Below, piece after piece: positions 6,144-54,845 of a DNA stretch of 64,000 bases. The stretch is from an uncultured Gammaproteobacteria bacterium (GTDB lineage: Bacteria; Patescibacteriota; Microgenomatia; 2-02-FULL-39-11). The DNA is taken from assembly GCA_964362665.1 (NCBI GenBank), contig CAYIFB010000002.1, positions 14,404-78,403 on the forward strand. The letters run 5' to 3'. The notes below the pieces were generated by a model that saw only the letters and a program-made list of their open reading frames with translations, did not search any database and was not told the DNA's origin. The position numbers were made by a program, and so were the translations under genes. Every line of letters starts with the position of its first letter. The stretch's first letter is position 1.

Positions 6144-6144
6144 A

Positions 6145-7090: not shown

Positions 7091-7118
7091 TAAAAAAAGT
7101 TGAAGTTGTAATCAACTA
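7091..7118 (-). terminator. rho-independent terminator of rplA (overlaps stop codon)
   Basis: Minus-strand RNA forms AGUUGA-UUACAACU-UCAACU followed by seven U. Confidence 0.45.
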
Positions 7119-7984: not shown

Positions 7985-7985
7985 A

Positions 7986-9299: not shown

Positions 9300-9380
9300 T
9301 ATTATAATATACTATAGGTTATAGGAATTGTCAAGTATGAAGCTGAGATCGAGAATTATTGACTTATGGAATGAGGTTAA

Positions 9381-9893
9381 TCAGTCAGATGCATTATGCT
9401 GCTTCAGCTGTTTTTCGATAATTTTTTGGATGAGTGAGACATTGGTTTGGTTCAGCATCTCTTTGAGTTCCTTATCCCGATTTACGCCTTTATTTAAGCG
9501 TTTATTGAGGATTTGCAGAGCTTTTGTCAGTTCGCGTTCGGAGATAAGAATCATCTGCAAAAGCAGTTCATTTCTGAGGGTGTTGATATAGCTTTGCCTA
9601 TTTTGGCTGATGAGAACAATCACGGTCAGAAAAATGGCACCAACTGAGGCTATCATTGTCAGTAAGATAAAAGGATAAGGATCATAAATCGGAACACCCG
9701 GAATTACCCCGACATTAAATAAAATCCAGATAATTGTGACTATCAGTAAAATGATAAAAAATCTCGCGGTGCCAAAGCGGCTGGTTAATATATCAGCTAT
9801 TTTTATGGAGATGGTTCTTTTACTTAAAGTCTGGGCCTCAAGGGTGCGGATTAATCCAACGTAGTTCTGAGGAGAGTTTATCTGTTTCATCAA
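9381..9893 (-). CDS. small two-TM membrane protein (DUF1003-like)
   Basis: Two long hydrophobic helices followed by a charged coiled tail. Family assignment is from memory only. Confidence 0.35.
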   Translation of the reverse strand: MMKQINSPQNYVGLIRTLEAQTLSKRTISIKIADILTSRFGTARFFIILLIVTIIWILFNVGVIPGVPIYDPYPFILLTMIASVGAIFLTVIVLISQNRQSYINTLRNELLLQMILISERELTKALQILNKRLNKGVNRDKELKEMLNQTNVSLIQKIIEKQLKQHNASD

Positions 9894-9895
9894 AT

Positions 9896-10498
9896 TTACA
9901 GCTTTGTTACCTGCAGGAAATCGAGCTCAACCGGTGTTTCCCGGCCGAAGATGGAGACCAAAACTTTGATCGTGCCTTTTGCTTCATCAATCGCCTCCAC
10001 ACTTCCCAGAAAATCGGCAAAAGGTCCGTCGACGATTTTGACAGCCTCGCCAACCGAAAATTTAGTCTTGAATTTCGGCGCATCCAGCCTCATGAATTTC
10101 ATGATAGCTTCAACTTCGGTGTCAGAAATGGGTGTTGGTTTATTACCCGTTCCGACAAAGGCCGTAACTCCCGGAGTCGTTCGTACAGCCAGCCAGCTTT
10201 CATCATCGAGGTTCATGCGGACCAGGATGTATCCCGGGAAAATCTTTTCTTTGGCGTCTTCTTTTTTACCGTGGCGAACCAAAACTACATTTCGCGTGGG
10301 GACGACTGACTCAAAAATCTTCTCGGTCAAATTCATTGCCTTGACGCGCTGTTTGAGTGCTTCAGCGGCTTTATTTTCATGTCCGGAATAGGTATGGATG
10401 ACAAACCATTTGCCTTTCCCAGCATTGGGATCAACTGGTGCGAGGTCTGCCACCACAGGTACTGGTTGGGTGACGCTGGTTGTTGTTTTATCTGCCAT
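9896..10498 (-). CDS. nusG: transcription termination/antitermination factor NusG
   Basis: KWFVIHTYSGHENKAAEALKQRV matches the NGN domain. C-terminal KOW (GEAVKIVDGPFADFLGSVEAID). Located downstream of secE. Confidence 0.9.
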   Translation of the reverse strand: MADKTTTSVTQPVPVVADLAPVDPNAGKGKWFVIHTYSGHENKAAEALKQRVKAMNLTEKIFESVVPTRNVVLVRHGKKEDAKEKIFPGYILVRMNLDDESWLAVRTTPGVTAFVGTGNKPTPISDTEVEAIMKFMRLDAPKFKTKFSVGEAVKIVDGPFADFLGSVEAIDEAKGTIKVLVSIFGRETPVELDFLQVTKL

Positions 10499-10501
10499 TT
10501 T

Positions 10502-10723
10502 TTATCTTTTAAATATTAAACTTGTTAGTTTGGTCAGTAATATATCCATTCCTCCGATATAAAGCCCGATGACGGTAGAAATAACTACTACTATAATAGT
10601 CAGTTTGATAACTTCCTCACGCGAGGGCCAATTTACCTTCAAAAGCTCGCTCTTTACCTCTTTTAAAAATATAACCGGACTTCCTTTGAAGTCAGGCTTC
10701 ATCGGTTTGGGTAATTCGATCAT
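10502..10723 (-). CDS. secE: preprotein translocase subunit SecE
   Basis: 73 aa with a single C-terminal TM helix. Position immediately 5' of nusG. Confidence 0.75.
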   Translation of the reverse strand: MIELPKPMKPDFKGSPVIFLKEVKSELLKVNWPSREEVIKLTIIVVVISTVIGLYIGGMDILLTKLTSLIFKR

Positions 10724-13391: not shown

Positions 13392-13504
13392 CTTGAGGAG
13401 TCTTTTTTTGGGAAAAATTAGAGGAATTTAGAGGAGATCTTTAAGTTCCTTTAGATTCCTTTAAAATCCTTTACTTTCAAAAGTTCCTGAATTAGACTGA
13501 AATC

Positions 13505-14233
13505 ATGGCTGATTTTATAGTGGACGAGCTGGTAAAAAAGACCTTCCGTGAGCTTTCAGAGAGTCCAAAACCGCAACAGTATTCAAGGGTCTGGAAGTCT
13601 CCAAACGGTTATATTTTCCTTGTCCCCTGGGCAAATGCCAATTTACTCCGGACTATTATAGTCCGATTTACAAGTTCCCTGCCAAAATCCAATTTCAGAT
13701 TTAAAAACCAGATTGATGATGCGGCAAGATCCGTGATTGCCAATATTGAAGAAGGATTTGCCCGACCAACAACCCACGAGTATTTGAAGTTTCTGGGTTT
13801 TTCGCAGGCAAGTCTAAAGGAAGTGAAAGGAGATATCCAAAGAGCCCGGCAGGACGGATTGTTGAAATCTATTCCGGGATCGAGTATTACAGTATTAGAA
13901 ATTAATCTTAAGGATTGGCATGAGAAGTTAAAGGTTTCGGTGATTTCGAGGTCTGCGGGAACTCACGGGGTTAGAGGAATTTACAGGAAGTTAGAGGAGG
14001 TTAGAGGAAAGATTGACGGGAAAAGTCCTCTAAAATCCTTTAAGTTCCTTTATGATCCTGTAGACAATCTTCGTGTTTCTGATTTGACTTATGAAATTTT
14101 CATTGAACTAATCAATAAAACCGACTGGCACCTGCGAAGACTGGTAGAATCTTTGGAAAACAAACTAGTAAGGGATAAGAAATACTACCAGATTGAACAG
14201 GCGAGAATACTGGGTAAAGCTAGAGGAGTTTAA
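13505..14233 (+). CDS. four-helix-bundle protein (TIGR02436-like, '23S rRNA intervening-sequence protein' family) with extensions
   Basis: SVIANIEEGFARPTTHEYLKFLGFSQASLKEVKGDI matches the family core. 242 aa is longer than typical. Confidence 0.5.
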   Translation: MADFIVDELVKKTFRELSESPKPQQYSRVWKSPNGYIFLVPWANANLLRTIIVRFTSSLPKSNFRFKNQIDDAARSVIANIEEGFARPTTHEYLKFLGFSQASLKEVKGDIQRARQDGLLKSIPGSSITVLEINLKDWHEKLKVSVISRSAGTHGVRGIYRKLEEVRGKIDGKSPLKSFKFLYDPVDNLRVSDLTYEIFIELINKTDWHLRRLVESLENKLVRDKKYYQIEQARILGKARGV

Positions 14234-14249
14234 AGGATTTTGGAGGAAA

Positions 14250-25613: not shown

Positions 25614-25689
25614 CTTATAATTCCTGATGTTTGTTTTGAGTGTTTGTTTTGAGTGTAATCGAAGGGGAGGACATTAAGAACGTCTTAAT

Positions 25690-25940
25690 TAATTGACAAT
25701 TTATAATGAAATCGCTACTATTCCGGAATGTTGGAAGCTGTAAATCTAATTTCACTGGATTTGGATGGAGTGGTTACCCTAATGTCTCTTTTTTGCTGCA
25801 GAGCCTGGTCTATCAAAAAAACCTGATTGCTTCGCAGAAGCGGCATCGTGTTCTGTGAAAAAAATCCATATTCAGACACTTCATGGCTTGGAGTAAACTC
25901 TCCGCCGATAAATACACCGATATAACATATATCCAGCCAG
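25690..25940 (+). pseudogene. chimeric duplicated fragment: 5' end of gene 29158 fused to 3' end of NUDIX gene 26777..27241
   Basis: 25695-25790 is near-identical to 29121-29215, covering the promoter and first ~20 codons. 25790-25940 is near-identical to 26785-26945. The fused reading frame stops after 32 codons. Confidence 0.65.
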
Positions 25941-26024
25941 GAGTCGGCATTTTAGATATAGACCTATAGTGTACAAATCTTCAATTTTAAGATACAATAA
26001 GGTGATTAGCTTGGGAGTAAACTT

Positions 26025-26776: not shown

Positions 26777-27241
26777 CTATGATATTCGTTTTTGCTGCAG
26801 AGCCTGGTCTATCAAAAAAACCTGATTGCTTCGAAGAAGCGGCATTGCATCCTCTGAAAAAAAGCCAAACTCAGATACTTCATGGTTTGGAGTAAACTCT
26901 CCGCCGATAAATACTCCGATATAGCACATGTCGAGTCGGGAGCCGATGCGGTCAGTGCGGGTTTTGAGTGATTCATCGACACTGACCACCAGTCCTGATT
27001 CTTCTTTTATTTCCCGCTCAAGCGCCTCAGCAGGATGCTCGCCGGATTTCAAATATCCGCCCGGCAGACTCCAGGAGTGCTGTCTGTAAGTATGTTTAAA
27101 AAGCAAGACTTCGTTTTTCTCGTTAAAAATAATTCCTGTAACCCCGATCAAAAATTGAGTTTGAAAAAAACGCATGAAAAAGAGCTGTAAGCCTTTGGGA
27201 AGGTTCAATAGTTTCCAGACTTTGGCAAAAAATGATTTCAC
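26777..27241 (-). CDS. NUDIX hydrolase
   Basis: Nudix box GGYLKSGEHPAEALEREIKEESGL fits Gx5Ex7REUxEExGU. Confidence 0.8.
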   Translation of the reverse strand: MKSFFAKVWKLLNLPKGLQLFFMRFFQTQFLIGVTGIIFNEKNEVLLFKHTYRQHSWSLPGGYLKSGEHPAEALEREIKEESGLVVSVDESLKTRTDRIGSRLDMCYIGVFIGGEFTPNHEVSEFGFFSEDAMPLLRSNQVFLIDQALQQKRIS

Positions 27242-28730: not shown

Positions 28731-29157
28731 AAATTTTCTTCGAGTATAAGGTTGTCCCTCGTTTGTCAGATAGGATGATTATATCATACTATAGGTTAAT
28801 GGGTATTCTGATAAACGGGAGTGACGATGGCAGACCAAAGACCGGGAATTTGAGGCATCCTTAATTGTGTTATTTTATTTGATTAATCAAAAATCGACAC
28901 AAAGCCTTAGTGGATTGCTGCGGCGATGATAATGGATAGGCCTATGGAAATTCCGGCAATCAGGATGGCAAGGGCTTTTTGGGGATGGGCGAGAAATAAG
29001 GAAGATAATATTTAAAAACTTACAAAAATAAATAGACTATGGATTTTGCGCATTTATCATATATTAGCAATTTCGGGAAACTTATTCCATTTCGGGAATA
29101 TTGAAAGGTATTACTTTATTAATTGACAATTTATAATGATGTCGCTACAATTCCGGA

Positions 29158-29820
29158 GTGTTGGAAGTTATCAATCTGGTTTCACTGGATTTGGATGGAG
29201 TGGTCACCGCTCGCGGTTTAACTCGTCAATATAACGCTGAAAGAGATTTAAGAAATTTTGGTGCTGTCATCTTTGAAGCACCTCCTTCTGTTCCGGACCA
29301 CCCGCAAACCATTTATCCCGGAGGTTTAAAAGCAGGCGAAATTTTCTCCTTTCTAGGTCATAAGCCAAGAAGAATTACTACGGAAACGAGTGCAGTTATC
29401 GGGGAGGCTCATGCTCGGGGAGTTATATTTAATGTAAATTCTGGAAGAAAAGCAACTCCACCATGGGCTGATATGACAAATAAACTACTCGAAAGGGGCG
29501 GTATTAAACGCTTTATTAAAACCGTTTATCTTCGTCCTCCGGGCTGGGAAACGGGGGTAAGCAAAATAGCAGGAATAGAAGCTATGAGAAAGCCATATAT
29601 AGATGAAGGAAGGCCAGTAAGGCTTTTTGTCTTTGAAGATAATTTTCGAGAAGGAGCGCAGATCGCCCAGTTTTTCCCCAACGCAAAGGTGGTAATCGTG
29701 AGAGATAACAGTACGGAAAAGTTGCGAACTGCTTTTGGTAGGGATTTAGAAAATATTGTATATGCGGATAGTTTTCATGAAGGAATGCGGGAGCATGTGC
29801 TTAAAGATCTATTGAGTTAA
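29158..29820 (+). CDS. HAD-like hypothetical protein (GTG start)
   Basis: LDLDGVV matches HAD motif I. A 5' fragment of this gene is duplicated at 25.7 kb. Confidence 0.35.
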   Translation: MLEVINLVSLDLDGVVTARGLTRQYNAERDLRNFGAVIFEAPPSVPDHPQTIYPGGLKAGEIFSFLGHKPRRITTETSAVIGEAHARGVIFNVNSGRKATPPWADMTNKLLERGGIKRFIKTVYLRPPGWETGVSKIAGIEAMRKPYIDEGRPVRLFVFEDNFREGAQIAQFFPNAKVVIVRDNSTEKLRTAFGRDLENIVYADSFHEGMREHVLKDLLS

Positions 29821-29852: not shown

Positions 29853-29938
29853 CCTCCTTATCTTAGCATTCGCCTTACCCTACTATTCGTAGCGCGGCTC
29901 ATGCTGCGATTATCGGCGGACACAAGAATCCGTAAATA
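29853..29938 (+). promoter_or_regulatory. second copy of the rplJ-rplL spacer structured element, upstream of radical SAM gene
   Basis: Central core is near-identical to the sense strand of 2187..2261, with a compensatory inner-stem change. Confidence 0.4.
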
Positions 29939-30127
29939 CTCACAGGTTCGTTAACGGATTCTAGTGCAGGGCCAGGTGGGAGTAAAATCTCTGAAAAGGG
30001 TTTTACCTGCCTAAAAAACTTTTTCAGCCCCAAATTAAGAAAGTTCGAACCGCAAATTGATTTTAGTATAAAGTAGGATATAATTTCCGAATCTTATTTA
30101 TTATTTCTCTTAAATTAAATTTTAAAT

Positions 30128-31948: not shown

Positions 31949-32090
31949 GTTTAAGACTACGTATAGTTTGATATTCCACTTTATTCTAGATCTTTTTATA
32001 TAAAATTATAATTATTAAAAAGCTTAAAATCCTACTCTATATCCAGATAAAGTTTATACGCCATCAAAGGTGGTACCAACCTGCAGAACT

Positions 32091-32198
32091 TGCAGTGATT
32101 TATGAAAAAGTTCGAACCTATTTTCTCGCTGACTCCTAGCTCGCCCCGCCTCCGGCGGGGCTCGCATGGTCGGCGCGTCGCCCCCGCCCGACGCGCCT
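32091..32198. repeat. inverted repeat A' (108 bp, GC-rich), partner of 37732..37839
   Basis: Exact reverse-complement identity read directly from the sequence. Confidence 0.9.
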
Positions 32199-32669
32199 AA
32201 GGCATTGTCTGCGCGCGCGTTTTCTCTCTCCGCTGAGCGGATCGAGCAAGGTAGGATTATAGTAGCACAAAGCCCAGTACGTTGTGATTCCGTATCAACC
32301 CACCCACCCAAAACAAATATTGATGGCGGCGACCCCGCCTTGTGCGAGAGGGCGCCCTAGGGGGCGCCTCGCCAATGTTCAGGTAATTTATTTTCTCTTT
32401 CAGTCTCTACCGAAGTTAGTTTTGATTTAGCATGTCCTGCAGTCGGCGAGATATCCGCTTTTCGCCCCCGCCGCTCATATCGTATCCCTGTCCAGCGTTC
32501 GGTTGGCTTGCGCGCCCGCTTATGGGTACGCGCTTCGCGCGAAGATAATTATTTTAGCGCCCGGCGCGCCACGTTCGGATCGTGGATAGAGCGCGCGTAT
32601 GAACGCGCGCCTTTTAGCTAGTGCTACCCGGGGAAGCGGGGGCGGCGGAGCCGCCAAAGCTATTCTGAA

Positions 32670-33314
32670 TTAGAATTTTCTTTCAAAGTTGGTAGAAAAA
32701 GAAGAAAAAAAATTTCTGTAGATATCAGAGTTCGTCTTTGCGTGCCATAATTGTGTTAGATACTTGTGGATTCCGTTTTCAAAGCAGACTAAAAGCATAC
32801 GAGTATCAACAAGCAGTCTTTTTTTCTTTCTTTCCCATTTTAGCAAGTTTGGTAACGGTTCTATCAGGACACTATGACGTAAGAGAAATTTATGTACGAG
32901 TTGATTTCTGATTCCAAAGTAAAAAATTTCTGAATACTTAACTTTCTGTTTTTTGTAAAACCATTTCTCTCGACTTCCAATCTGTGCTGGATGGTATGGC
33001 TGTTTTATTTCTTTTTTAAATTGCTTGCTTAGATAATCTTCGAGAAATAAAGGAAAATATTTATTTGGTTCGTCTTTTGCATATCTAAATCTACTTAAAA
33101 ATTCGACCCCAACGGATACCATTACTGCTAATCCAAACATTGAACCCGCCTTTTCCTTAATGCGTTTTGTGTCTTCAATAAGCCATGGGAGTATTCTTCT
33201 ATTTTCAAACCAATAAAGTTTTTCGTTATCGGCTAGCTTAGAAAAGTCAATATCACTCCACGTTGAAGGAAAGAGGTCGATCATTACTTTTCTCTTTTTC
33301 GTTGGAGTTATCAT
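32670..33314 (-). CDS. hypothetical protein (island cargo, second gene of operon)
   Basis: 214 aa. Lies 9 nt downstream of the 343-aa gene on the same strand. Confidence 0.35.
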   Translation of the reverse strand: MITPTKKRKVMIDLFPSTWSDIDFSKLADNEKLYWFENRRILPWLIEDTKRIKEKAGSMFGLAVMVSVGVEFLSRFRYAKDEPNKYFPLFLEDYLSKQFKKEIKQPYHPAQIGSREKWFYKKQKVKYSEIFYFGIRNQLVHKFLLRHSVLIEPLPNLLKWERKKKRLLVDTRMLLVCFENGIHKYLTQLWHAKTNSDIYRNFFSSFSTNFERKF

Positions 33315-33322
33315 GGCTGTAA

Positions 33323-34354
33323 TTACTTATTAGAATTTCCGCTCACAAGTTGCAGTGGCGCTATAGTGAAAGAGGGGAATTCTTCGTCCTGTGGAAGTTC
33401 TGTTCCTGTAATGATTTTTCCAATTGCACGTCTAACATTTTGTGTATTTTGGTGGATAGCGGAATAAATTTTAAGACGGTCTTCCCAATCTCTTTTATGG
33501 CTATTTACTTCCTTAATAAGTAGATTATATGCCGCTCTAACCTTTTCCAAATTATCAACCATGTTTTTCTTGAATTCTCCAGTTTGCATATATCTCAAAA
33601 TTTCTCGTCCTTTTTGGTCTGTCTGTTCCTTGGTTAGCTTCATTCGATGGATATCAATAAGTATATTTCTTAATAGAAAAGCTAGATCCAGTAAGCCTAG
33701 TGGGTCAATGACAATAACTTCATCGTCAATAAAAAATTTAGATTTATTTTCTTTCTGTGCATGCGTTACAATAACGGCATAGTCTGCGCGTGCGACATCC
33801 TGATGACCCTTTATTTCTTTAACGAACCCATTATTATATTTTTCTGTTCTTTTGCATTCATATAAAACGCTTCCAACGTTTTCGTCGTTGAATACAACAA
33901 ATTGAATGACATCGCCCATTTTTCCAGTCGATTGGATTTTATCCGTGGGGAAAGCATCGGATAGCATTTTTTGGACCTCCTTTTCATATTCAAAGCCTGC
34001 TGTTTGAGGAGTTTTTCCTTCCTTAAGTTGTTTTTCTAGTTCTTGAATTTTTTTATTATTAGCTTGCAGTGCCTTAGTCTGATTTTGAAGCATTTTTGTC
34101 ATCCTCATCCGTTCGCTTTGTTCCTTTTTAATTCCTTTGGCTACACCCGACTCTTCTGCCAGTTTTGTCGCTTTTTTTACATCTTCTTGATATTTCTTCT
34201 TTAATTCCTCCTCCTGTTTTTTGTATTTATCAATCGCCTTTTTGGCCTCTATGATAATTTTTTGCCTTTCTTCCCATTGTCCTGTTATCCTTATCCAAGT
34301 TTCTCTTGTTAAGATGCTTTCGCATAGCGGGCATTTATAGGTTTGATTATCCAT
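33323..34354 (-). CDS. zinc-finger / coiled-coil protein with C-terminal PD-(D/E)xK-like nuclease motif
   Basis: N-terminal CPLC...C zinc knuckle, ~120 aa of Lys/Glu-rich coiled coil, then GDVIQFVVF...LYECK resembling the D...ExK nuclease core. Confidence 0.4.
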   Translation of the reverse strand: MDNQTYKCPLCESILTRETWIRITGQWEERQKIIIEAKKAIDKYKKQEEELKKKYQEDVKKATKLAEESGVAKGIKKEQSERMRMTKMLQNQTKALQANNKKIQELEKQLKEGKTPQTAGFEYEKEVQKMLSDAFPTDKIQSTGKMGDVIQFVVFNDENVGSVLYECKRTEKYNNGFVKEIKGHQDVARADYAVIVTHAQKENKSKFFIDDEVIVIDPLGLLDLAFLLRNILIDIHRMKLTKEQTDQKGREILRYMQTGEFKKNMVDNLEKVRAAYNLLIKEVNSHKRDWEDRLKIYSAIHQNTQNVRRAIGKIITGTELPQDEEFPSFTIAPLQLVSGNSNK

Positions 34355-34416
34355 ATATTTTTACTTCTTGACAATAGTCATAGAAAAGTAATAAATTAAT
34401 AATAGACCAACTGCCT

Positions 34417-35019
34417 ATGAAAGTCAATGCCGCCATGACCATAACACCGAAGCAGAAGCAGGTATTGGATTTCATCAAGAGCTTCGTCAAAAATAACGGC
34501 TATTCGCCGTCGCTCCATGAGATCGCGGGACATTTCCGAAAATCCGTCAGCACCGCTCAGCATTTCGTCGAGGAGCTGGACAATAGGGGATTTCTTCAAA
34601 AAACAGACAATGTAGCCCGTGGAATCAGCACGGCAATCCAGCAATTTGGCCGCATCTTCAAGCTCGGCGTCATCGCCGCAGGCAATCCGATAGAACCGAT
34701 TGAGAATCCGGAACCGATCGATGTGCCTTTATCTATGATAAGCAGAAAAGGAGATTACTATGCGCTTGAAGTAAGGGGGACCAGCATGATGGACGATAAT
34801 ATTCTTGACGGGGATATTATTGTTGTCCGACACCAGAAAATTGTAGAGGATGGCGATCGAGTAGTTGCGGTTACGGAAAAAGGCGCCACTCTAAAAGTTT
34901 ATCGGAATAGAAATGGTAAAGTATATCTTGAGCCTCGAAATAAGTCCTTAAGCAATATTTATCCAAAAGAGCTTGAGATTCGCGGCAAGTTTTGTGGTTT
35001 AATAAGAAAAGGAGACTAA
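34417..35019 (+). CDS. LexA-like S24 autopeptidase repressor
   Basis: N-terminal winged HTH (SPSLHEIAGHF). C-terminal ALEVRGTSMMDDNILDGDIIVV matches the S24 Ser-Lys peptidase motif GxSM...GD. Confidence 0.75.
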   Translation: MKVNAAMTITPKQKQVLDFIKSFVKNNGYSPSLHEIAGHFRKSVSTAQHFVEELDNRGFLQKTDNVARGISTAIQQFGRIFKLGVIAAGNPIEPIENPEPIDVPLSMISRKGDYYALEVRGTSMMDDNILDGDIIVVRHQKIVEDGDRVVAVTEKGATLKVYRNRNGKVYLEPRNKSLSNIYPKELEIRGKFCGLIRKGD

Positions 35020-35044
35020 ATGAATCTGCCCATCAATAAAATCA

Positions 35045-35452
35045 ATGACAGATGTATTTACAAAGAAAAAGCGGAGCCTGATAATGTCGCGGATAAGTGG
35101 AAAGCATACATTGCCGGAATTAAGAGTTAGAAAAGCACTTTACAGTATAGGTATAAGATACAGATTGCACAATAAGAAGCTTTCTGGGCATCCGGATATT
35201 GTTATTAGGAGAAAGAAAGCGGCTTTATTCGTTAATGGTTGTTTTTGGCATCAGCATAAGAATTGCAAGAGAAGTACTATACCGAAAACGAATAAAAAGT
35301 ATTGGCTGCCGAAATTAAAAAGGAATATTGAAAAGCAAGTAGAGGATTTTAGGAAATTAAGAAAAGAAGGGTGGAAGACGACAGTCGTTTGGGAATGTCA
35401 AACAAAAAATCAGATTAAGCTCGAATCAAGATTAAGAAGAATATTTGTATGA
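35045..35452 (+). CDS. vsr: very-short-patch-repair endonuclease
   Basis: KRSLIMSRI...PDIV...FVNGCFWHQH aligns with Vsr (TRSKNMRAI...PDFV...FTHGCFWHHH). Overlaps the start of the downstream m5C methyltransferase. Confidence 0.8.
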   Translation: MTDVFTKKKRSLIMSRISGKHTLPELRVRKALYSIGIRYRLHNKKLSGHPDIVIRRKKAALFVNGCFWHQHKNCKRSTIPKTNKKYWLPKLKRNIEKQVEDFRKLRKEGWKTTVVWECQTKNQIKLESRLRRIFV

Positions 35453-36555
35453 AGAAAAAAGTTTTCAGAATTGCAGAATTATTTTCAGGTCCCGGCGGCT
35501 TGGCTTTTGGTGCCGTCAATACGCACGTATCTACTTCTGATTTGGAATATACGCTTGAATCAGTTTGGTCAAATGACATTGACGCGGATGCCTGCAGAAC
35601 CTATGCCCGAAATATTCATGGCGGCGATCAATCGAAAACAATCTGCAAACCTGTTCAGGAGCTTGATTTCGAAAAGCTTCCTGCATTCGATGCTTTAGCT
35701 TTCGGATTTCCATGCAATGACTTCAGCGTTGTGGGAGAACAGAAGGGGTTCAATGGAAAATATGGACCTCTTTATTCCTACGGAGTAAAAGCAATCAACG
35801 CACATAACCCAATGCTGTTTATTGCAGAAAATGTCAGCGGACTGCAGAGCGCGAACAAAGGAGATGCGTTTGCAAAGATTTTGAGCGATTTAGAGCACGC
35901 GGGCAAGGGATATCGCTTAACAACTCATCTTTATAAATTCGAAGACTACGGTGTACCGCAATATAGACACAGGGTAGTTATTATCGGAATTCGGAGTGAT
36001 CTGAATCTAAAGTTCAACGTGCCTGCTCCTACAACTTTGCAGAAATATGTTACCGCGCGGGATGCTCTTGAAAAACCGCCTATTTCTGCAGATGCGCCAA
36101 ACAACGAATTGACGCGGCAGTCTGAGGTTGTGATTGAAAGATTGAAATACATACCGCCTGGGAAGAATGCTTGGTATGAAGGCATTCCTGAACACCTGCG
36201 GCTGAACGTAAAAAAAGCACGCATGAGTCAGATATACAAGCGTCTTGATCCTAATAAGCCCGCATACACAATTACTGGTTCAGGCGGCGGCGGCACCCAT
36301 GTCTATCATTGGAAGGAAAATAGAGCGCTGACTAATAGGGAGCGTGCGCGCCTGCAATCCTTTCCTGATAAGTTTGTTTTTGAAGGATCAAAAGAGAGCG
36401 TGCGCAAACAGATCGGCATGGCTGTTCCTCCAAAAGGAGCAAGTGCAGTAATTTCGGCTGTATTGAAAACTTTCGCCGGGTTATCTTATCCATCTGTTCC
36501 GGCAAAACTTACGAACGGGTTTCCTCCGCTCAACGGAATGCTGTTTGATTTTTAG
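35449..36555 (+). CDS. DNA (cytosine-5)-methyltransferase
   Basis: Motif I FSGPGG, motif IV PCNDFS, motif VI ENV, and a C-terminal QIGMAVPP-type motif. Confidence 0.85.
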   Translation: MKKKVFRIAELFSGPGGLAFGAVNTHVSTSDLEYTLESVWSNDIDADACRTYARNIHGGDQSKTICKPVQELDFEKLPAFDALAFGFPCNDFSVVGEQKGFNGKYGPLYSYGVKAINAHNPMLFIAENVSGLQSANKGDAFAKILSDLEHAGKGYRLTTHLYKFEDYGVPQYRHRVVIIGIRSDLNLKFNVPAPTTLQKYVTARDALEKPPISADAPNNELTRQSEVVIERLKYIPPGKNAWYEGIPEHLRLNVKKARMSQIYKRLDPNKPAYTITGSGGGGTHVYHWKENRALTNRERARLQSFPDKFVFEGSKESVRKQIGMAVPPKGASAVISAVLKTFAGLSYPSVPAKLTNGFPPLNGMLFDF

Positions 36556-37391
36556 AGGATGCTGATAAGCTTCTCCCAATCTTTCCTATTTTTCTTCAGG
36601 AGACCGGATTTTTTTACAAACCTTTTTCCGTCGAATTCCTGACCCTCAATGCTCGTTACTTCTTCCAGATCATCGGCCCAACACCATCCGGATACCTCGC
36701 AGGGAATTTCGGAAAAGTCCGGAATAACGGCGCTGTATTTGCTGAAGTGAGGCATATTTTTCACAACTGACACGATTTCCTGTTTTGCAATTCTCAACAG
36801 ATGGTCGTCAGGAATTTCCGGTCTGCAGTAAATATATATGTCCGAACGCCGAGCTGGGATATTTATTTCATTTTCACCCAAAATCAAATACGCGCTTTTT
36901 GGCTTCGATGATTTTATTCCGACGCCTTTGCGTGGCTTCTGCATTTTACCGTTTCGTACAATACCGATAATGTCCTGCGGCACGATCTCTCCGTAGATAT
37001 TAAAATCAAGTTCGACTTCTGTATTGAATTCCTTTTTGAAGAATTTTTTGACGGCTACTTCGCCAAGCTGTCCTTTAACCCAATTGGTGATTTTTTGACC
37101 GAATTCGCGTTGTCTCGCGGTACCCCAATCAGAAAGCACATATCCGCGGAAATGCTGAGCAAGAGCAAAGTCGAGACATAAGGCATAATCAGCCTTTGTT
37201 AAACTGATGGTCCGCCACGCATAGCTCTTTTTCCATTCTGCAAGGGTTTCCTCCGAAAACATGAATCTGCCGTGGGAGCCGTTTCTTTCCATGCATTTGA
37301 ACTCCTCGGCGTTTTTGAAGTAGTTGTCGAAAGCCTTCGGATCAAGGCCGGTATAGGCGATTGCGTCTTTTTTGCTTAGTATCTTGCCCAT
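36552..37391 (-). CDS. putative type II restriction endonuclease
   Basis: Convergent with and overlapping the methyltransferase. Immediately downstream of a C-protein gene. No recognised family. Confidence 0.45.
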   Translation of the reverse strand: MGKILSKKDAIAYTGLDPKAFDNYFKNAEEFKCMERNGSHGRFMFSEETLAEWKKSYAWRTISLTKADYALCLDFALAQHFRGYVLSDWGTARQREFGQKITNWVKGQLGEVAVKKFFKKEFNTEVELDFNIYGEIVPQDIIGIVRNGKMQKPRKGVGIKSSKPKSAYLILGENEINIPARRSDIYIYCRPEIPDDHLLRIAKQEIVSVVKNMPHFSKYSAVIPDFSEIPCEVSGWCWADDLEEVTSIEGQEFDGKRFVKKSGLLKKNRKDWEKLISIL

Positions 37392-37392
37392 A

Positions 37393-37614
37393 TTATTTGA
37401 TAAAGTATTCGATATTCTTTCTGTAGATTTCTGCGATTTGTTTCAGTTGGACAAGATCGATTCTTCGTTGTCCAGATTCCATTTTTGAAATATATGACTG
37501 CGACTTATTCAGCAGTTTTGCCGCAGTTTTCTGATCGAGCTTGGCAGAGAGCCGGGCAGATTTCAGCTTTTCGATAAGATTTTTATGCTCTTTTGTATAG
37601 ATGTCTTTTGACAT
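37393..37614 (-). CDS. XRE-family HTH controller (C) protein
   Basis: 73 aa. QKTAAKLLNKSQSYISKMESGQRRI is an HTH_XRE motif. Its stop abuts the restriction enzyme start. Confidence 0.6.
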   Translation of the reverse strand: MSKDIYTKEHKNLIEKLKSARLSAKLDQKTAAKLLNKSQSYISKMESGQRRIDLVQLKQIAEIYRKNIEYFIK

Positions 37615-37640
37615 AAGCTGATTTGACTTATTGTATGATA

Positions 37641-37674
37641 TATTCCAAAATAGAATATGCCAAAATGGAATATA
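37641..37674. promoter_or_regulatory. candidate C-box operator: tandem 13-nt repeats CCAAAAT(A/G)GAATA
   Basis: Two direct repeats separated by 2 nt, 30-60 nt upstream of the C-protein start. Confidence 0.35.
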
Positions 37675-37731
37675 CGTACAGAAATTTCTGCGGGGTCTTT
37701 AAATTTTAAAATTTCGAGCCGATGCGTTTGC

Positions 37732-37839
37732 AGGCGCGTCGGGCGGGGGCGACGCGCCGACCATGCGAGCCCCGCCGGAGGCGGGGCGAGCTAGGAGTCA
37801 GCGAGAAAATAGGTTCGAACTTTTTCATAAATCACTGCA
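37732..37839. repeat. inverted repeat A (108 bp)
   Basis: Reverse complement of 32091..32198. Overlaps repeat B by the 5-nt CTGCA. Confidence 0.9.
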
Positions 37840-37936
37840 GAAAGAGAATTCGAGGCTCCGCCGGATGGTTGGCTCTGCGCGGGTGGGGTCGCGCAGAGTG
37901 TTTGGAAGGGCTCGCGGAAAACGGCCGAGAGCCGCC
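37835..37936. repeat. inverted repeat B (102 bp), partner of 39379..39480
   Basis: Exact reverse-complement identity. Begins with CTGCAG. Confidence 0.9.
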
Positions 37937-37982
37937 GAAGACAAAAAGAAGGAAAGACCCCGCAGAAATTTCTTTTCATTAT

Positions 37983-39503
37983 ATGAAATACATTGCGTAC
38001 TGTAGAAGATCGACTGATGAGAAAGATAGGCAAGTTCTGTCTATAGAGGCGCAAATTGCAGAAATTAAAGAATACGCAAAGCGGGAGCAGGTAGATATCG
38101 CTGAATTCATCACCGAGTCTAGAACCGCCAAGGAGCCGGGCCGTCCATTATTTGCCGATCTTATAGGTAAAATTGAACGGGGACTGGCCTCTGGCATTAT
38201 CGCATGGCATCCTGATAGACTTGCCCGTAATTCTATAGACGGCGGCCGGATTATTTACCTTATCGACATCGGCAAGCTCGGCGGGCTCAAATTTCCGACG
38301 TTTTGGTTTGAAAATACGCCGCAGGGAAAATTCATGCTCTCAATCGCCTTCGGCCAGTCCAAATATTACGTCGATAACCTCTCGGAAAATGTGAAGCGCG
38401 GCATCCGGCAGAAGCTGAGAAACGGCGTGTGGCCGCATAATGCACCGCTTGGCTATCTCAACGATCTTAAAGTGCATTCCATTCTCGTTGATCCAAAGAC
38501 CGCGCCGCTCGTGCAGAAATCATTTAAACGATTTGCGTCGCGCACTGTTTCATTTACTGATATTGCGCGCATGTTTGCTGATAGCGGAATTCGTAGGAAA
38601 AGCGGCCGCATTATTCATATCAACACAGTGCGCAACATGCTCGCCAACAGATTTTATATCGGGCAAATGATTCATCTTGGCGAATATTACGATGGTACGC
38701 ATGAACAGATTATTGATCGAAATTTATTTTATAAGGTACAGACGGAGCTAATGCGTATTGAGCGTCCGCATTTCAAGGGACATCATTTTCCGTTTGTGGG
38801 ACTTGCGCGGTGCGGAGAGTGCGGCGGGGCAATTACCGGAGAAATCCATACAAAATATTATCGCACCACCCGAGGAAAAGTTACATACACATATTACCGA
38901 TGTACGAAGAAATTTGGTCCGTGTTTTAGTAGGTATCTTACCGATTCCGAATTTGAGAAACAGATTCGAGTATTGGTTGCTTCGGTTGGATTGCCGCAGG
39001 AGTGGGAGAGTGAGTGGCGGCAGAAATTTACTATGGATTCGGAATCGGAAAAGATTGGGGCAGAGAAACGGCGGCAAGTTTTGGAATTAAAATTAGCGGA
39101 TATAAATGGAAAGCTCGATCTGTTGCTCGATGGACTTCTTGATCAGACGATTGATCAGGGTGCATATCGGAAAAAGAAAAATACGCTTTCAGAAAATAAG
39201 CGTCAAACGGATGAAGAAAAGAAAGATATTTTGTCGGGGAAAAATAAACGGCTCGAACTCATGAAGGAATTTATAGACAGCGCCTTTCAGGCGCATAAAA
39301 TCGCGCGCGCAGACAATGCCTGCGAAGATTTGGCAATCTTCGCCAAACGCATCGGCTCGAACTTCTTTTTGAAAGACCGGCGGCTCTCGGCCGTTTTCCG
39401 CGAGCCCTTCCAAACACTCTGCGCGACCCCACCCGCGCAGAGCCAACCATCCGGCGGAGCCTCGAATTCTCTTTCTGCAGGTCCGCAGCGATTCGAACGC
39501 TGA
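37983..39503 (+). CDS. large serine recombinase (resolvase/invertase-type catalytic domain + recombinase domain + zinc ribbon + coiled coil)
   Basis: MKYIAYCRRSTDEKDRQVLSIEAQ contains the catalytic Ser. The resolvase core is followed by a recombinase domain, a CGECGG...C zinc ribbon and a coiled coil. The upstream extension of the ORF (from 37722) lies inside repeats A/B and was rejected. Confidence 0.85.
   Translation: MKYIAYCRRSTDEKDRQVLSIEAQIAEIKEYAKREQVDIAEFITESRTAKEPGRPLFADLIGKIERGLASGIIAWHPDRLARNSIDGGRIIYLIDIGKLGGLKFPTFWFENTPQGKFMLSIAFGQSKYYVDNLSENVKRGIRQKLRNGVWPHNAPLGYLNDLKVHSILVDPKTAPLVQKSFKRFASRTVSFTDIARMFADSGIRRKSGRIIHINTVRNMLANRFYIGQMIHLGEYYDGTHEQIIDRNLFYKVQTELMRIERPHFKGHHFPFVGLARCGECGGAITGEIHTKYYRTTRGKVTYTYYRCTKKFGPCFSRYLTDSEFEKQIRVLVASVGLPQEWESEWRQKFTMDSESEKIGAEKRRQVLELKLADINGKLDLLLDGLLDQTIDQGAYRKKKNTLSENKRQTDEEKKDILSGKNKRLELMKEFIDSAFQAHKIARADNACEDLAIFAKRIGSNFFLKDRRLSAVFREPFQTLCATPPAQSQPSGGASNSLSAGPQRFER
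39379..39480. repeat. inverted repeat B' (102 bp)
   Basis: Reverse complement of 37835..37936. Encodes the last ~35 codons of the recombinase and ends inside the tRNA-Trp 3' end. Confidence 0.9.
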
Positions 39504-39548
39504 ATAAGGGTTTTGGAGACCCTTGTGATACCATTTCACTACGGACCT
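39478..39548 (-). tRNA. trnW: tRNA-Trp (anticodon CCA)
   Basis: Folded by hand. Acceptor AGGUCCG/CGGACCU (7 bp), U8, D-stem GUGA/UCAC, anticodon stem AGGGU/ACCCU with loop CUCCAAA, 4-nt variable loop, T-arm CAGCG-UUCGAAU-CGCUG, discriminator G. The anticodon loop is identical to E. coli tRNA-Trp. CCA is not encoded. Confidence 0.8.
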
Positions 39549-39612: not shown

Positions 39613-40197
39613 TTACTGGATGAATTTAAAGGAAGAGATGGCGTTCTGGAATGTGGTGCCGTAGCCTGCGATAATCACTTCTTCATCTCGCGAGGGATGT
39701 TTGACTATTACCTCATCGCGGGGGGAATTATCGCTATTTGTATCATGATAAAGCGTTGCCGGCTGGCCATCGACGATAATTGATTCAATTTTTTCCGCCT
39801 TCACAGGAGGGATGGGAATTTTTTCTGAGCAGGCGACAGCGATTGATATTTTATCATCATCGGGATTGGTAAAAATAATGGATTTTTCGTTTGTAGACTG
39901 TTGCCGGATGAAGTTTCCCGGATAGGAAAAGGAAACGCCGCAGGTTTTATCGGTAAAGGTGATTTTGGAGGAGGAAACAGGAGTTAAAGCTGCACTGATG
40001 GTTGATATGACCGTCGGAGAGAGAAATAAAGTTGGAGTTGGTATTTTTGATGGGGTAATTATAGAAGTCGGAGAAAGATTTGTTGATATTTTCGACTGGG
40101 TGATGCCGATTTTTTTGCCTAAATTTACTCCGACCAAAAAGACTGCGACGATACTCAGGAAAAAAATGAGAAAGATGGTGCCTTTGGCCATTTTCAA
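39613..40197 (-). CDS. hypothetical membrane-anchored protein
   Basis: N-terminal TM helix. Low-complexity Ser/Thr/Pro segment. Confidence 0.35.
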   Translation of the reverse strand: MKMAKGTIFLIFFLSIVAVFLVGVNLGKKIGITQSKISTNLSPTSIITPSKIPTPTLFLSPTVISTISAALTPVSSSKITFTDKTCGVSFSYPGNFIRQQSTNEKSIIFTNPDDDKISIAVACSEKIPIPPVKAEKIESIIVDGQPATLYHDTNSDNSPRDEVIVKHPSRDEEVIIAGYGTTFQNAISSFKFIQ

Positions 40198-40208
40198 ATA
40201 ACAGTAAT

Positions 40209-40382
40209 TTAGTCTAACTTATCCGATTCCTTGTGTTGTGTAGCTTTGCGGCAGCGCCGGCAATATTTATGCAATTCCAGCTTGTCTTTGACGTTCAGCT
40301 TATTTTTGGTCGTGACGTAATTCTGGCTTTTGCAGTCTTTACAAACTAAAGCGATAATGATTCTTTGTTCTTTTTTGGCCAT
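40209..40382 (-). CDS. rpmG: 50S ribosomal protein L33
   Basis: Not in the ORF track (57 aa). [30 protein letters not shown]...[18 protein letters not shown] matches the L33 pattern C..C..NY..KNK.N...LELKKYC..C.K.T.H.E. Confidence 0.8.
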
Positions 40383-40428
40383 ACTTCGATTCTCTCAGTA
40401 CAAGTACTTCGATTCCCTCAGTACAAGT
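40383..40428. repeat. 23-nt direct tandem repeat x2 in the rpmG 5' region
   Basis: acttcgattctctcagtacaagt / acttcgattccctcagtacaagt. Confidence 0.6.
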
Positions 40429-53132: not shown

Positions 53133-54803
53133 ATGACCATTTTAGGCCTCACCTCACCTCTATCATGGAATCAGGCTGCAGCCATAGTGAAGAACGGGAA
53201 ATTATTGGCTGTCGTTGAGGAGGAACGTTTCAATCGGATAAAGCATTCGCCCAGGATGCCCCCCTATAAATCCATTGAATTTTGTTTGCGGTTCGCCAAA
53301 GTTTTGCCCCACGATGTTGATGCCATTGCTTTGGGTTACCGGAGTCCTTTTGCTTATTATTGGAGAAGCGTTTTGGAGAATTTGAAGGAGAGGGATTTTA
53401 AGCGTCTCATTCGTGAAGGCGGCGCTTTGGCTGAATATATTGTGGGGACCGTGAGATTGATGGAGTGGTTAGAGACGAAGGGATTCAGAATCAAAGGACA
53501 AAACAAAGCTGAAATAAAATTTTATCCGCACCATGTTGTTCATGCGGCAAGTGCCTACAGGTGTTCCGGTTTTGAAAAAGCTAATGTGATAACTCTTGAC
53601 GGACAGGGTGAAGATGATTCCGGATCCATTTGGGAAGCACGTGACGGGCGTATGAAAAAGATTCATAAGATAGGTCATCATCAGAGTATAGGATGGGTTT
53701 ATCATGAAACAACGGATATTTTAGGTTTTAAGCCGCACAGTCATGAGGGTAAAGTAATGGGGCTGGCCGGTTGGGGCAAAAAAAAATTACCCGTCGGTGA
53801 AATATGGGAAGCGGGAGAATTCGATTATAAATTAAAGCATGGATGGTGTAAAAAATTCTGGAAGAAGTTTGGGCCAAGGCGCAGGAGAGAAGATTCATTA
53901 ACAGAAAGGCATAAAAATATTGCCCTAACTGTGCAAAACTTTACTGAAAAAGCAGGTATTTCGCTTGTAAATAAAGCCTATAAAAAAACAGGAATGAATA
54001 AATTTTGTTTAGCAGGGGGAGTTGCACTGAATTGCGATATGAATGCTAAAATTTGGGAGCTGCCCTTGGTTGAAAAAATCTTTATACAGCCGGCCTCAGA
54101 TGATGCAGGAACCGCGATCGGTGGCGCATTGGAATTGGCAAATGAACTTTGTGAAAACGCTGATTTCGAGATGCGGCATGCTTATTGGGGTCCAGAGTAT
54201 TCCAACAGAGAGATAGAAACCGTTTTAAAAGAAGCAAAAATCAATTACGAAAAAGTTAAAGATATCGAAAAAATCGTTGCGCAAAAGTTAGCTGAAGGTA
54301 AAATAGTGGGGTGGTTTCAAGGCAGGCTTGAAATTGGACCAAGAGCTCTGGGTAACAGAAGTATTTTAGCCCATCCCGGGCTGCCCGGGATGAAAGACAA
54401 GATAAACAGGGAAGTCAAACATAGGGAATTATGGAGACCTTTTGCTCCCTCAATTTTACATGATAGAGGTGAAGAATATTTTGAAAATTATTGTTTCAAT
54501 CCTTTTATGCTTCTGACTTTGAAATGCAAGAAAAAAGCACTCAAAGATCTTTCACAGGCTATTCATATAGACGGAACAGCCAGACACCAGAGTGTCATTG
54601 CAGAGACCAATCCCAGGTATTATAAGTTAATTTCAGAATTTGCTAAAATTTCCGGAATTCCGGCAGTACTGAATACCTCATTTAATGATGCTGAAGAACC
54701 TCTAGTCAATTCTCCCAAAGATGCGATCAGGACATTTTTTGGAACAGGTTTGGATATGTTGGCTATTGGAGATTATATTGTCAGCAAGGGAAACTTATTT
54801 TGA
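53133..54803 (+). CDS. NodU/CmcH-family carbamoyltransferase
   Basis: MTILGL...WNQAAAIVKNGKLLAVVEEERFNRIKH is the family N-terminus. Start trimmed to the ATG at 53133. Confidence 0.75.
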   Translation: MTILGLTSPLSWNQAAAIVKNGKLLAVVEEERFNRIKHSPRMPPYKSIEFCLRFAKVLPHDVDAIALGYRSPFAYYWRSVLENLKERDFKRLIREGGALAEYIVGTVRLMEWLETKGFRIKGQNKAEIKFYPHHVVHAASAYRCSGFEKANVITLDGQGEDDSGSIWEARDGRMKKIHKIGHHQSIGWVYHETTDILGFKPHSHEGKVMGLAGWGKKKLPVGEIWEAGEFDYKLKHGWCKKFWKKFGPRRRREDSLTERHKNIALTVQNFTEKAGISLVNKAYKKTGMNKFCLAGGVALNCDMNAKIWELPLVEKIFIQPASDDAGTAIGGALELANELCENADFEMRHAYWGPEYSNREIETVLKEAKINYEKVKDIEKIVAQKLAEGKIVGWFQGRLEIGPRALGNRSILAHPGLPGMKDKINREVKHRELWRPFAPSILHDRGEEYFENYCFNPFMLLTLKCKKKALKDLSQAIHIDGTARHQSVIAETNPRYYKLISEFAKISGIPAVLNTSFNDAEEPLVNSPKDAIRTFFGTGLDMLAIGDYIVSKGNLF

Positions 54804-54845
54804 AAATGAGGTGCAACCTCGTTGAAAATGAGGTGCAACCTCGTT
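54802..54845. repeat. tandem 22-nt repeat x2, each a GAGGT-GCA-ACCTC hairpin
   Basis: gaaaatgaggtgcaacctcgtt repeated twice directly after the carbamoyltransferase stop. Confidence 0.6.

Follow-up and report, generated by a model that had tools for sequence, protein, structure and literature searches.

What lies behind a tRNA gene whose last nucleotides overlap, on the opposite strand, the end of a recombinase gene? This question was raised by a 64,000-nucleotide (nt) stretch of contig CAYIFB010000002.1 (assembly GCA_964362665.1, positions 14,404 to 78,403), referred to below as the window, which holds a tRNA-Trp(CCA) gene on the minus strand and, next to it, a recombinase gene between long inverted repeats. 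The tRNA is a real, intact host gene that is used as the docking site of an element. Most probably, it represents the host half of the attL site of a 7.39-kb large serine recombinase (LSR) element that occupies 32091-39480 and is integrated at the pentamer CTGCA; an inferred role of an internal att-type site, S2, forms part of this reading. The tRNA-Trp itself is ordinary, and it is the element family behind it that makes the locus worth attention. Other assemblies and loci are cited by our own numbers (L001 and so on).

The tRNA-Trp gene and the att-type junctions

The sole tRNA called by ARAGORN in the window is tRNA-Trp(cca) at 39477-39548 on the minus strand, and Rfam RF00005 matches 39478-39548 of the same strand over the full model (62.9 bits, E = 2.9e-11; gathering score 29). 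Read from its 5′ end, the gene comprises a 7-bp acceptor stem (AGGTCCG/CGGACCT, with the A1-U72 pair), the linker TA, a D stem GTGA/TCAC enclosing AATGGTA, a single A, an anticodon stem AGGGT/ACCCT with the loop CTCCAAA, a variable loop of 4 nt (TATT), a T stem CAGCG/CGCTG with the loop TTCGAAT, and the discriminator G73. On reading the sequence, all four stems are paired throughout, with no mismatches. CCA is not encoded, and G73 is followed by CAG. A canonical tRNA-Trp(CCA) cloverleaf had been proposed from a hand fold in a sequence-only reading of this DNA, which suggested running ARAGORN on the minus strand; the ARAGORN call, the Rfam score and the manual reading of the stems bear this out, and the hand fold was correct. 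The same reading had the 3′ third of the gene shared with the inverted repeat termed B′ and with the recombinase stop region. The overlap with B′ proved to be 3 nt only (39478-39480), whereas the overlap with the recombinase holds: the tail of its open reading frame (ORF) covers the last 26 nt of the tRNA (39478-39503) in antisense, with the TGA at 39501-39503. The gene rpmG, placed about 0.7 kb away, indeed lies at 40209-40382 on the minus strand (Pfam L33), 661 nt from the tRNA 5′ end.

The features that define the tRNA side, the junctions and the recombinase are as follows (aa, amino acids).

39478-39548, minus strand: tRNA-Trp(CCA), intact; host (B-type) half-site of attL (ARAGORN, Rfam, sequence reading, half-site logos)
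39476-39480, minus strand: core CTGCA at attL, tRNA positions 71-73 plus 2 nt, presumed crossover region (three-site comparison)
39378-39480, minus strand: B′ arm (P′ arm of attL), 103 nt, with a GC-rich hairpin, inverted copy of 37835-37937 (repeat pair I2)
37983-39503, plus strand: large serine recombinase, 506 aa from MKYIAY (Pfam, homolog N-termini, SPbeta integrase profile match)
37732-37937, plus strand: S2, internal attP-like site A′, CTGCA, B (repeats; L088 and L089; essentially all family loci)
32091-32198, minus strand: A arm and core at attR (S3), 108 nt, inverted copy of 37732-37839 (repeat pair I1)
32040-32090, minus strand: X flank, the presumed host DNA downstream of tRNA-Trp before insertion (AGTTCTGCAGGTTGGTACCACCTTTG...; likeness to L001, end of homology with L004)
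39613-40382, minus strand: host flank upstream of the tRNA, a 194-aa gene and rpmG (Pfam L33; gene order in L001 to L003; homologs in L004)

A repeat search revealed two pairs of inverted repeats, each with 100% identity: pair A, 32091-32198 and 37732-37839 (108 nt), and pair B, 37835-37937 and 39378-39480 (103 nt). When the sites were compared side by side, CTGCA appeared as the core common to all three. On the minus strand, S1 reads ...GCGGAC CTGCA GAAAGAGAATTC..., that is tRNA, core, B′, and corresponds to attL. S2, on the plus strand, reads ...ATAAATCA CTGCA GAAAGAGAATTC... (A′, core, B) and is attP-like, while S3, again on the minus strand, reads ...ATAAATCA CTGCA AGTTCTGCAGG... (A, core, X) and corresponds to attR. 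S1 and S3 are in direct orientation and enclose the 7.39 kb between 32091 and 39480; S2 is inverted relative to both. The hybrid junctions attL and attR thus share their core with attP, and the same was found in 31 other loci. Because only the core is common to the tRNA and the element, the tRNA-Trp gene is left whole. The A arm at attR holds GGTTCGAACTTTTTC, a mimic of the T-loop with P-type spacing (15 nt to the core), while in the tRNA the T-loop GTTCGAA stops 11 nt short of the core.

The boundaries were further defined by comparison with L004, another Patescibacteria genome, where a recombinase 90% identical to that of the window likewise stands at tRNA-Trp. DNA homology between the two (87%) begins exactly at 32092, where A has its outer end, and ceases at 39549, the first nucleotide of the tRNA at its 5′ side. 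The host flank of L004 is far more diverged, with 61% protein identity for rpmG and 35% for the neighbouring gene. The element (87%) has therefore moved or been exchanged independently of the host (rpmG 61%). A homolog of the 194-aa gene also accompanies rpmG upstream of tRNA-Trp in L004, and rpmG stands beside tRNA-Trp in L061.

L001, the closest relative of the window's host (about 85% nucleotide identity in the flanks), does not carry the element. Its genes follow in the order rpmG, a 192-aa gene and tRNA-Trp, and the order seen in the window is kept in L001 to L003. The DNA right behind the L001 tRNA-Trp, CTGCAAGTTTTGCGGGCAGGCAAAACCTTTG, and the core plus X flank of the window, CTGCAAGTTCTGCAGGTTGGTACCACCTTTG, are identical at 24 of 31 nt (hand count). 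This post-tRNA stretch of L001, CTGCAAGTTTTGCGGG..., resembles the X flank; the L001 tRNA allele differs from that of the window. In the Hainich groundwater assemblies, attL is reproduced in L002 and L003, and S2 is spanned colinearly in L088 and L089.

The tRNA-Trp alleles deserve a remark of their own. The L001 gene (5487-5609) differs from the window's at 25 of 71 positions in a hand alignment, with compensatory changes in all four stems, and a partial tRNA-like 5′ half lies directly upstream of it. In L084, a tRNA-Trp 100% identical to that of the window (135-209) stands in an unrelated context and is followed by toxin-antitoxin genes. It seems that the tRNA-Trp allele has been replaced or exchanged between lineages.

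We propose the following mechanism. The element's own LSR would integrate the 7.39 kb at the extreme 3′ end of tRNA-Trp, with the crossover in CTGCA (positions 71-73 plus 2 nt). It would recognise the tRNA through the T-loop GTTCGAA, the A arm having the same motif 4 nt farther from the core. The B′ arm with its GC-rich hairpin would supply a new 3′ trailer for the tRNA, while the inverted attP copy, S2, would stay live and available after integration and might, in addition, serve the recombinase gene as operator or insulator.

The recombinase, its family and the proposed reading of the tRNA

The open frame of the recombinase reaches back to 37722; the homologs begin at MKYIAY, which corresponds to 37983 in the window. 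Pfam recognises the Resolvase, Recombinase and Zn_ribbon_recom domains in the ORF (37722-39503, plus strand). The resolvase catalytic domain, PF00239, is found with E = 7e-19, and R8 and S10 of the YCRxS motif are invariant in alignment A1; PF07508 and PF13408 are also present, and the zinc-ribbon cysteines C277, C280, C307 and C314 are invariant in the family alignment. A search of solved structures with the single recombinase sequence gave no match and a profile was needed: the family profile matches the solved SPbeta integrase (YokA/SprA, 9DXH) over residues 4-451 with E = 8.5e-21, and recombinase region 340-440 aligns with this integrase. Exact-sequence look-ups of the 506-aa and 593-aa versions found no database record. 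Judging by its domains and the profile match, the enzyme is a bona fide LSR.

The 3′ end of the gene is built into the att site. The B′ arm encodes the final 34 residues of the recombinase before the core, and the frame across B′ is open in 37 of 38 loci, the other two frames being open in 20/38 and 14/38. In 36 of these 38, the frame runs past the crossover before it reaches its stop codon, and in L055 and L082 it stops earlier, upstream. As the P′ arm of attP lies inside the 3′ coding end of the recombinase, the ORF crosses the crossover and ends in the DNA beyond it. In the window it closes with 8 codons of tRNA antisense, so that the tail of the integrated form is ...NSLSA-GPQRFER; the tail predicted for the circle form is ...NSLSA-VIYEKVRTYFLADS, a reading that is kept on the S2 minus strand.

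Every B arm contains a strong GC-rich hairpin, the sequence of which differs from element to element; in several loci, a U-run comes after it on the strand of the tRNA sense. Motifs in the protein, LCAxPPAQS for example, appear conserved because the B arm encodes this hairpin. It is plausible that the B′ hairpin gives the tRNA a replacement 3′ trailer or terminator and that the S2 copy insulates the recombinase gene. A promoter and terminator scan of 31.9-39.8 kb yielded counts no higher than expected by chance.

Homologs of the recombinase number in the thousands, with 50-59% identity, and come mostly from the candidate phyla radiation (CPR)/Patescibacteria; 7,953 of 8,000 scored candidates had E ≤ 1e-10. 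Their C-terminal tails resemble translated tRNA DNA, e.g., ...GIEPGPHGPQPRILPLNYTP. For a scripted survey of the family, we kept 80 loci from species-representative genomes out of about 590 or more genome matches. Among the 64 loci that continue past the ORF, 53 have a convergent tRNA at or overlapping its end, and the tRNAs belong to 15 identities (Trp, Pro, Lys, Leu, Tyr, Arg, Val, Gln, Glu, Gly, Ile, Ser, Ala, Thr and His). The B/B′ inverted repeat, with one copy at the 3′ end of the ORF and the other in front of its start, is present in 63 of the 80 loci; it is typically 76-145 nt long and 92-100% identical, with the second copy typically 40-320 nt before the start. The A/A′ repeat is also present in 31 of these 63, where it abuts B and encloses 0.5-9 kb of cargo. 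In some loci, the far A copy is out of range, and the left flank of S2 is still an A-type sequence. Among complete-genome or chromosome records, L027, L049 and L067 have B/B′, and L027 and L067 also have A/A′. A prophage was considered and rejected, since IMG/VR contains no more than 6 weak relatives and the cargo amounts to just 0.5-9 kb. The family is apparently widespread in CPR bacteria, targets tRNA 3′ ends and has apparently not been described; a full-text literature search found no description of this architecture.

We aligned the half-sites of 38 non-redundant loci, anchored on the left edge of the core. The tRNA arms show the T-loop consensus GGTTCGAnTCC, with GTTCGA starting 18 nt before the core. 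In the A arms, the corresponding sequence is GTTCGAAtTTtTtc with its start at a distance of 22 nt, a constant outward shift of 4 nt. The core consensus is N72-N73-C-C-A, and the crossover is therefore at the very end of the mature tRNA, leaving the gene whole. A motif shared by attP and attB at different spacing is thus seen, in the left half-sites only: the only signal in the B arm is a weak ggAAa, located about 10-14 nt away from where the core begins, and X has none. For the LI integrase of Listeria, a zinc-ribbon-domain (ZD) motif has been described in both sites, 5 bp nearer to the centre in attB than in attP, and this positional difference underlies the attP × attB selectivity (PMC3783163). 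By analogy, the family fits this spacing logic, the T-loop serving as the putative motif common to both sites, and we infer that the recombinase would recognise the tRNA via the T-loop GTTCGAA.

The 4-nt shift of the motif would explain how relatives of the element use many different tRNAs. Near-identical A arms with the core GCAC(C) were found at tRNA-Tyr (L011), tRNA-Arg(TCG) (L014), tRNA-Leu(CAG) (L015) and tRNA-Arg(GCG) (L018), all of which end in ...GCACCA. With near-identical A arms at four kinds of tRNA, the choice of tRNA apparently needs little beyond the T-loop and the core.

The internal inverted site and competing explanations

S2 ends 45 nt upstream of the recombinase start codon and lies between the recombinase gene and a divergent gene for an Xre-type helix-turn-helix (HTH) protein, which is adjacent in at least 9 of 32 loci. 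Three further features lie around S2 and the A arm.

37680-37700, plus strand: left arm of a 21-nt perfect inverted repeat bracketing S2 (I10; partner 37953-37973; repeat search)
37713-37730, plus strand: inverted copy of recombinase codons K-R-I-G-S-N (39344-39361), directly distal to A′ (pair I14; family recurrence)
32200-32219, plus strand: inverted copy of recombinase codons A-R-A-D-N-A (39302-39321), directly inside the A arm (pair I6; family recurrence)

Both arms of the 21-nt bracket contain the palindrome AGAAATTTCT, and the right one ends 9 nt before the ATG. Analogous brackets of 24-39 nt surround S2 in L013, L063, L066, L071, L073 and L080; the bracket could be an operator or an RNA stem. 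The inverted codon blocks recur throughout the family, K-x-V/I-G-S-N just outside A′ and KIARAKN just inside A. They occupy the same places in most family loci, each matching the recombinase of its own element, and their order does not fit one simple inverted duplication. B and B′ are 100% identical within the window and within L004, and the B arms of the two elements are only 87% alike, which means that the arms evolve in concert. As a possible reason for B = B′, an RNA duplex between the 5′-UTR and the 3′ end was also considered.

One locus of the 80 may tell something of S2 activity. In L051 (9796-11582), the cassette lies between tRNA-Glu(UUC), upstream on the plus strand, and tRNA-Glu(CUC), downstream on the minus strand, with each tRNA gene joined to a B arm through the same core. 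Such an arrangement is consistent with the product expected if S2, as an attP, recombined with the attB of a second tRNA, thereby inverting the intervening chromosome. We tentatively suggest that S2 may be a functional attP held in the only stable (inverted) orientation and, at the same time, a binding platform that regulates the recombinase, in the awareness that this part of the reading could well be wrong. Folded single-stranded DNA acting as a duplex attP was also considered and not adopted, since double-strand exchange would break the chromosome into hairpin ends.

Several points weigh against an integrated LSR element with a working S2. Random integration of a circle carrying a pair of identical inverted attP sites should yield both isomers, and one orientation is seen; with a single orientation only, the internal site is either rarely used or the other isomer is counter-selected. 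The evidence for S2 activity is the one locus L051. The B (P′) arm is weakly conserved and forms no clear dyad with the A arm, so that the typing of half-sites is incomplete, and the observed shift is 4 nt as compared with the 5 bp reported for the LI integrase. The empty-site argument relies on L001, a relative whose tRNA-Trp is only 65% identical. A same-species empty site, searched for as the exact 24-nt pattern of tRNA 3′ end plus X, was not found in the JGI metagenomes, an excised circle was not found either, and no recombination directionality factor was recognised among the cargo in a Pfam scan. A 22-nt pattern of tRNA 3′ end plus core matched three unrelated protein-coding contigs and L084, which is uninformative on excision.

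Could the locus instead be an inversion switch of the Hin type, giving phase variation, in which both the 1.44-kb segment of the recombinase itself and the 5.5-kb cargo segment are turned round by this enzyme, with the tRNA merely adjacent? A serine recombinase gene between perfect inverted repeats does recall the hin segment, there are two contiguous invertible modules with a common middle site, the arms are kept identical in concert (B = B′ 100% within the elements, 87% between the window and L004), and consensus assemblies would not reveal rare flips. However, all 53 tRNAs at ORF ends are convergent with the recombinase, and L051 alone also has an upstream tRNA; likewise, pairwise cargo homologies have the same orientation relative to the recombinase in 35 of 35 cases. 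The enzyme, moreover, has 506 aa with recombinase and zinc-ribbon domains and is not a small invertase with a C-terminal HTH, and the hybrid attL, attP and attR sites together with the many different tRNA targets point to a mobile element. We therefore consider such a switch unlikely. A switch at equilibrium was rejected on the orientation counts (53 convergent tRNAs, 35/35 cargo homologies).

A different question concerns the extent of the inserted DNA. The sequence-only reading took the region for ancestral host DNA invaded by an island and saw in this island the reason why secE-nusG, near 10.7 kb, is no longer adjacent to the tRNA. The two genes are where it placed them (secE 10502-10723, Pfam SecE; nusG 9896-10498), and host DNA is indeed what we find on the tRNA and rpmG side. 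The size of the island is another matter: the element accounts for 7.4 of the 28.8 kb between secE and the tRNA and so leaves most of the separation, the other 21.4 kb (10.7-32.1 kb), without an explanation. This gap would be closed by a single insertion of about 29 kb that parted tRNA-Trp from secE-nusG, with one end at the tRNA (39.5 kb) and the other a little beyond secE (10.7 kb). In its favour are the presence of secE and nusG, the fact that tRNA-Trp commonly precedes secE in bacteria, and the miscellany of genes at 10.8-32 kb, including a 23S-IVP-like gene, SNase, a GDSL lipase, an M64 peptidase and a radical SAM enzyme. Nevertheless, the att-type junctions and the breakpoints of homology with L004 end the element at 32091. 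No recombinase fragment, tRNA fragment or clear att remnant was found in 10.7-32.1 kb, no second att set in 10.8-32 kb, and no second recombinase or tRNA fragment anywhere in the window. The region 10.8-32 kb contains only one weak A-like motif, near 30050, and its GC content is unremarkable, with no compositional break. The secE-nusG-rplKAJL cluster (minus strand, 1738-10723) is interrupted at two other places in this genome, by DUF1003 and a hypothetical gene between nusG and rplK, and by about 4 kb between rplA and rplJ (2987-7041) with an oxidoreductase-like gene, a HAD hydrolase and an HD-domain gene. Finally, in L004 and L061, the 5 kb beyond the far end of the tRNA-Trp element contain no nusG. 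A 29-kb island thus seems very unlikely.

The autonomous unit might also be smaller than the element proposed here, namely a 1.65-kb recombinase cassette with 103-nt terminal inverted repeats (37835-39480) resembling an insertion sequence. Its target would be the T-arm of the tRNA together with the T-arm-like A′ arm, and the cargo flanked by A would be a separate, non-autonomous unit. The flanks do form the imperfect palindrome GTTCGAA-N15-CTGCAG-N-TTCGAAC, L051 has the cassette alone between two tRNAs, and in several loci the far A arm was not detected within 10 kb. On the other hand, the left side of S2 is an A arm in about 60 loci, and the cassette was never seen next to plain host DNA; the A arms, cargo ends and recombinase form one block in the window and L004, with breakpoints at the outer end of A; and serine recombination at inverted sites cannot excise the cassette. 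Nor does the locus otherwise look like an insertion sequence, given that the flanking cores are inverted, there is one copy in the window, and the targets are tRNA 3′ ends. We regard this version as highly unlikely. That the inverted repeats and the internal attP are an assembly artefact, a mis-join of integrated and circular forms over 100-nt repeats, is scarcely credible: many public contigs end inside the arms, yet the architecture recurs in more than 60 independent assemblies from varied projects and assemblers, including the complete records L027, L049 and L067, while S2 is spanned by L088 and L089, and attL by L002.

Cargo, other features and comparison with known systems

The following genes, and one non-coding region, are carried between the A arms.

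32670-33314, minus strand: unknown 214-aa gene
33323-34354, minus strand: DUF2130 gene (Pfam)
34417-35019, plus strand: LexA-like S24 repressor (Pfam), shared with L004 at 83%
35045-35452, plus strand: Vsr (Pfam)
35449-36555, plus strand: C-5 cytosine methyltransferase (Pfam)
36552-37391, minus strand: putative restriction enzyme, no family match
37393-37614, minus strand: Xre-type HTH gene, divergent from the recombinase (Pfam)
32199-32669, plus strand (tentative): GC-rich structured non-coding region just inside the A arm (nhmmer, alignment A2, covariation)

The structured region is kept in 10 loci according to nhmmer. It is free of ORFs, about 430-470 nt long, with 51-62% GC in a 40% GC genome, and has the same orientation relative to the recombinase in all loci that carry it. 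The other copies are at L004 5324-5783, L006 4940-5413, L005 575-1055, L010 2804-3323, L023 5702-6215, L044 4618-5036, L032 4663-5052, L053 140-422 and L017 15-148. In the consensus of 50 pairs, 91% of cells are paired, compared with 45-56% in slid controls, and 18 pairs show compensatory double changes; none of 500 shuffles reached the observed values. The conserved motifs are ACCCACCCACCCA and ACAGUCUCU, a long-range helix is formed by CGCCCCCGCC/GCGGGGGCGG, and the G-U counts favour the plus strand. A comparison with Rfam 15 gave no consistent family match. If the proposed integration is true, an RNA of about 430 nt would sit, in the circle, directly downstream of the recombinase, across the attP junction.

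Some features elsewhere in the window may be recorded here. Rfam places an L10 leader at 2817-2926 (49.6 bits). At 25684-25946, 26786-26945 and 29114-29208, there are direct repeats, of 160 nt (88% identical, spaced by 999 nt) and of 95 nt (88%, spaced by 3.4 kb), which take in apparent gene starts with a common upstream region. A 57-nt inverted match (82%) links 2180-2236, in the rplL-rplJ intergenic region, to 29879-29935, and an A-arm-like motif, GGTTCGAACTTTCTTAATTTGG, lies about 100 nt from the latter, at about 30010-30050 on the minus strand; the two together could go back to an earlier insertion or to chance. At 13418-14247, repeats with a period of 10 nt (TTAGAGGAAT-like, and the complementary form) stand in clusters, inverted, on both sides of the 23S-rRNA-IVP-like gene (13505-14233). 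There is a perfect 22-nt tandem duplication at 54800-54843 (TTGAAAATGAGGTGCAACCTCG twice), and a 23-nt tandem pair at 40382-40427, upstream of rpmG.

Serine integrases are the main tools for the insertion of large DNA, and in nature they usually target protein-coding or intergenic sites. The tRNA T-loop is the most conserved sequence in biology, and the present family appears to recognise it and to choose the tRNA by a few core bases. Such a family would suit the study of attP/attB discrimination and may be a source of retargetable integrases. To our knowledge, the mobile elements of CPR genomes are poorly known, and this family would account for much of the traffic of small islands (restriction-modification, repressors, toxin-antitoxin) in them. 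The conserved internal inverted attP and the concerted 100-nt arms find no explanation in current models of serine integrases. If the role proposed for S2 is true, a permanent inverted attP would keep the element recombination-competent without excision; S2 could recombine with other tRNA genes, inverting the chromosome or moving modules, as L051 suggests, and could control recombinase expression. As a broader generalisation, and a doubtful one at present, CPR bacteria might share a class of LSR in which the ZD reads the T-loop, the discriminator/CCA core selects the tRNA, an inverted attP is permanent, and a subset carries the structured RNA.

Of the known systems, the large serine integrases of phages and integrative and conjugative elements (SPbeta SprA/YokA, Listeria A118/LI, phiC31, Bxb1) have the same three domains, a short identity core and a motif set farther out in the half-site of the element (by 4 nt here, by 5 bp in LI). 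Unlike them, the family targets tRNA 3′ ends of many identities, apparently via the T-loop; its P′ arm is inside the ORF, with the stop beyond the crossover and arms of about 100 nt kept identical; the integrated element contains a complete inverted attP, and the cargo is 0.5-9 kb. With the P4-like or Islander-type tRNA islands, the element has in common a boundary tRNA that is kept functional, an integrase beside this tRNA, and defence or regulatory cargo. Those islands, however, use tyrosine integrases and cross over inside the T or anticodon loops, whereas here the enzyme is a serine recombinase, the crossover is at the discriminator/CCA, and the far end carries no duplicate of the tRNA 3′ part, only the 5-nt core.

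In Hin, Gin, Cin and Min, a serine recombinase gene likewise lies between inverted sites, and adjacent segments share sites as in Min or shufflon-like systems, but the element described here has a large enzyme, a fixed orientation and hybrid att sites, and is mobile between genomes. As with the SSV1-type integrases, recombination takes place inside the integrase frame, and the protein sequence depends on the state of integration; unlike those tyrosine enzymes, whose gene is split, the serine enzyme exchanges its last few codons only. The tycheposons of Prochlorococcus, compared here by their description, are also small cargo elements at tRNA genes in streamlined genomes, and an LSR is present in a minority, 27 out of 937 (bioRxiv 10.1101/2020.12.28.424599). 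They mostly have tyrosine recombinases, and in that description, so far as it was available to us, neither a three-site inverted architecture nor a T-loop mimic is reported. Taken together, the comparisons single out four traits that appear to be new: a serine enzyme that targets tRNA 3′ ends via a T-loop mimic, a reading frame that extends across the crossover, long arms kept homogeneous, and an obligatory internal inverted attP.

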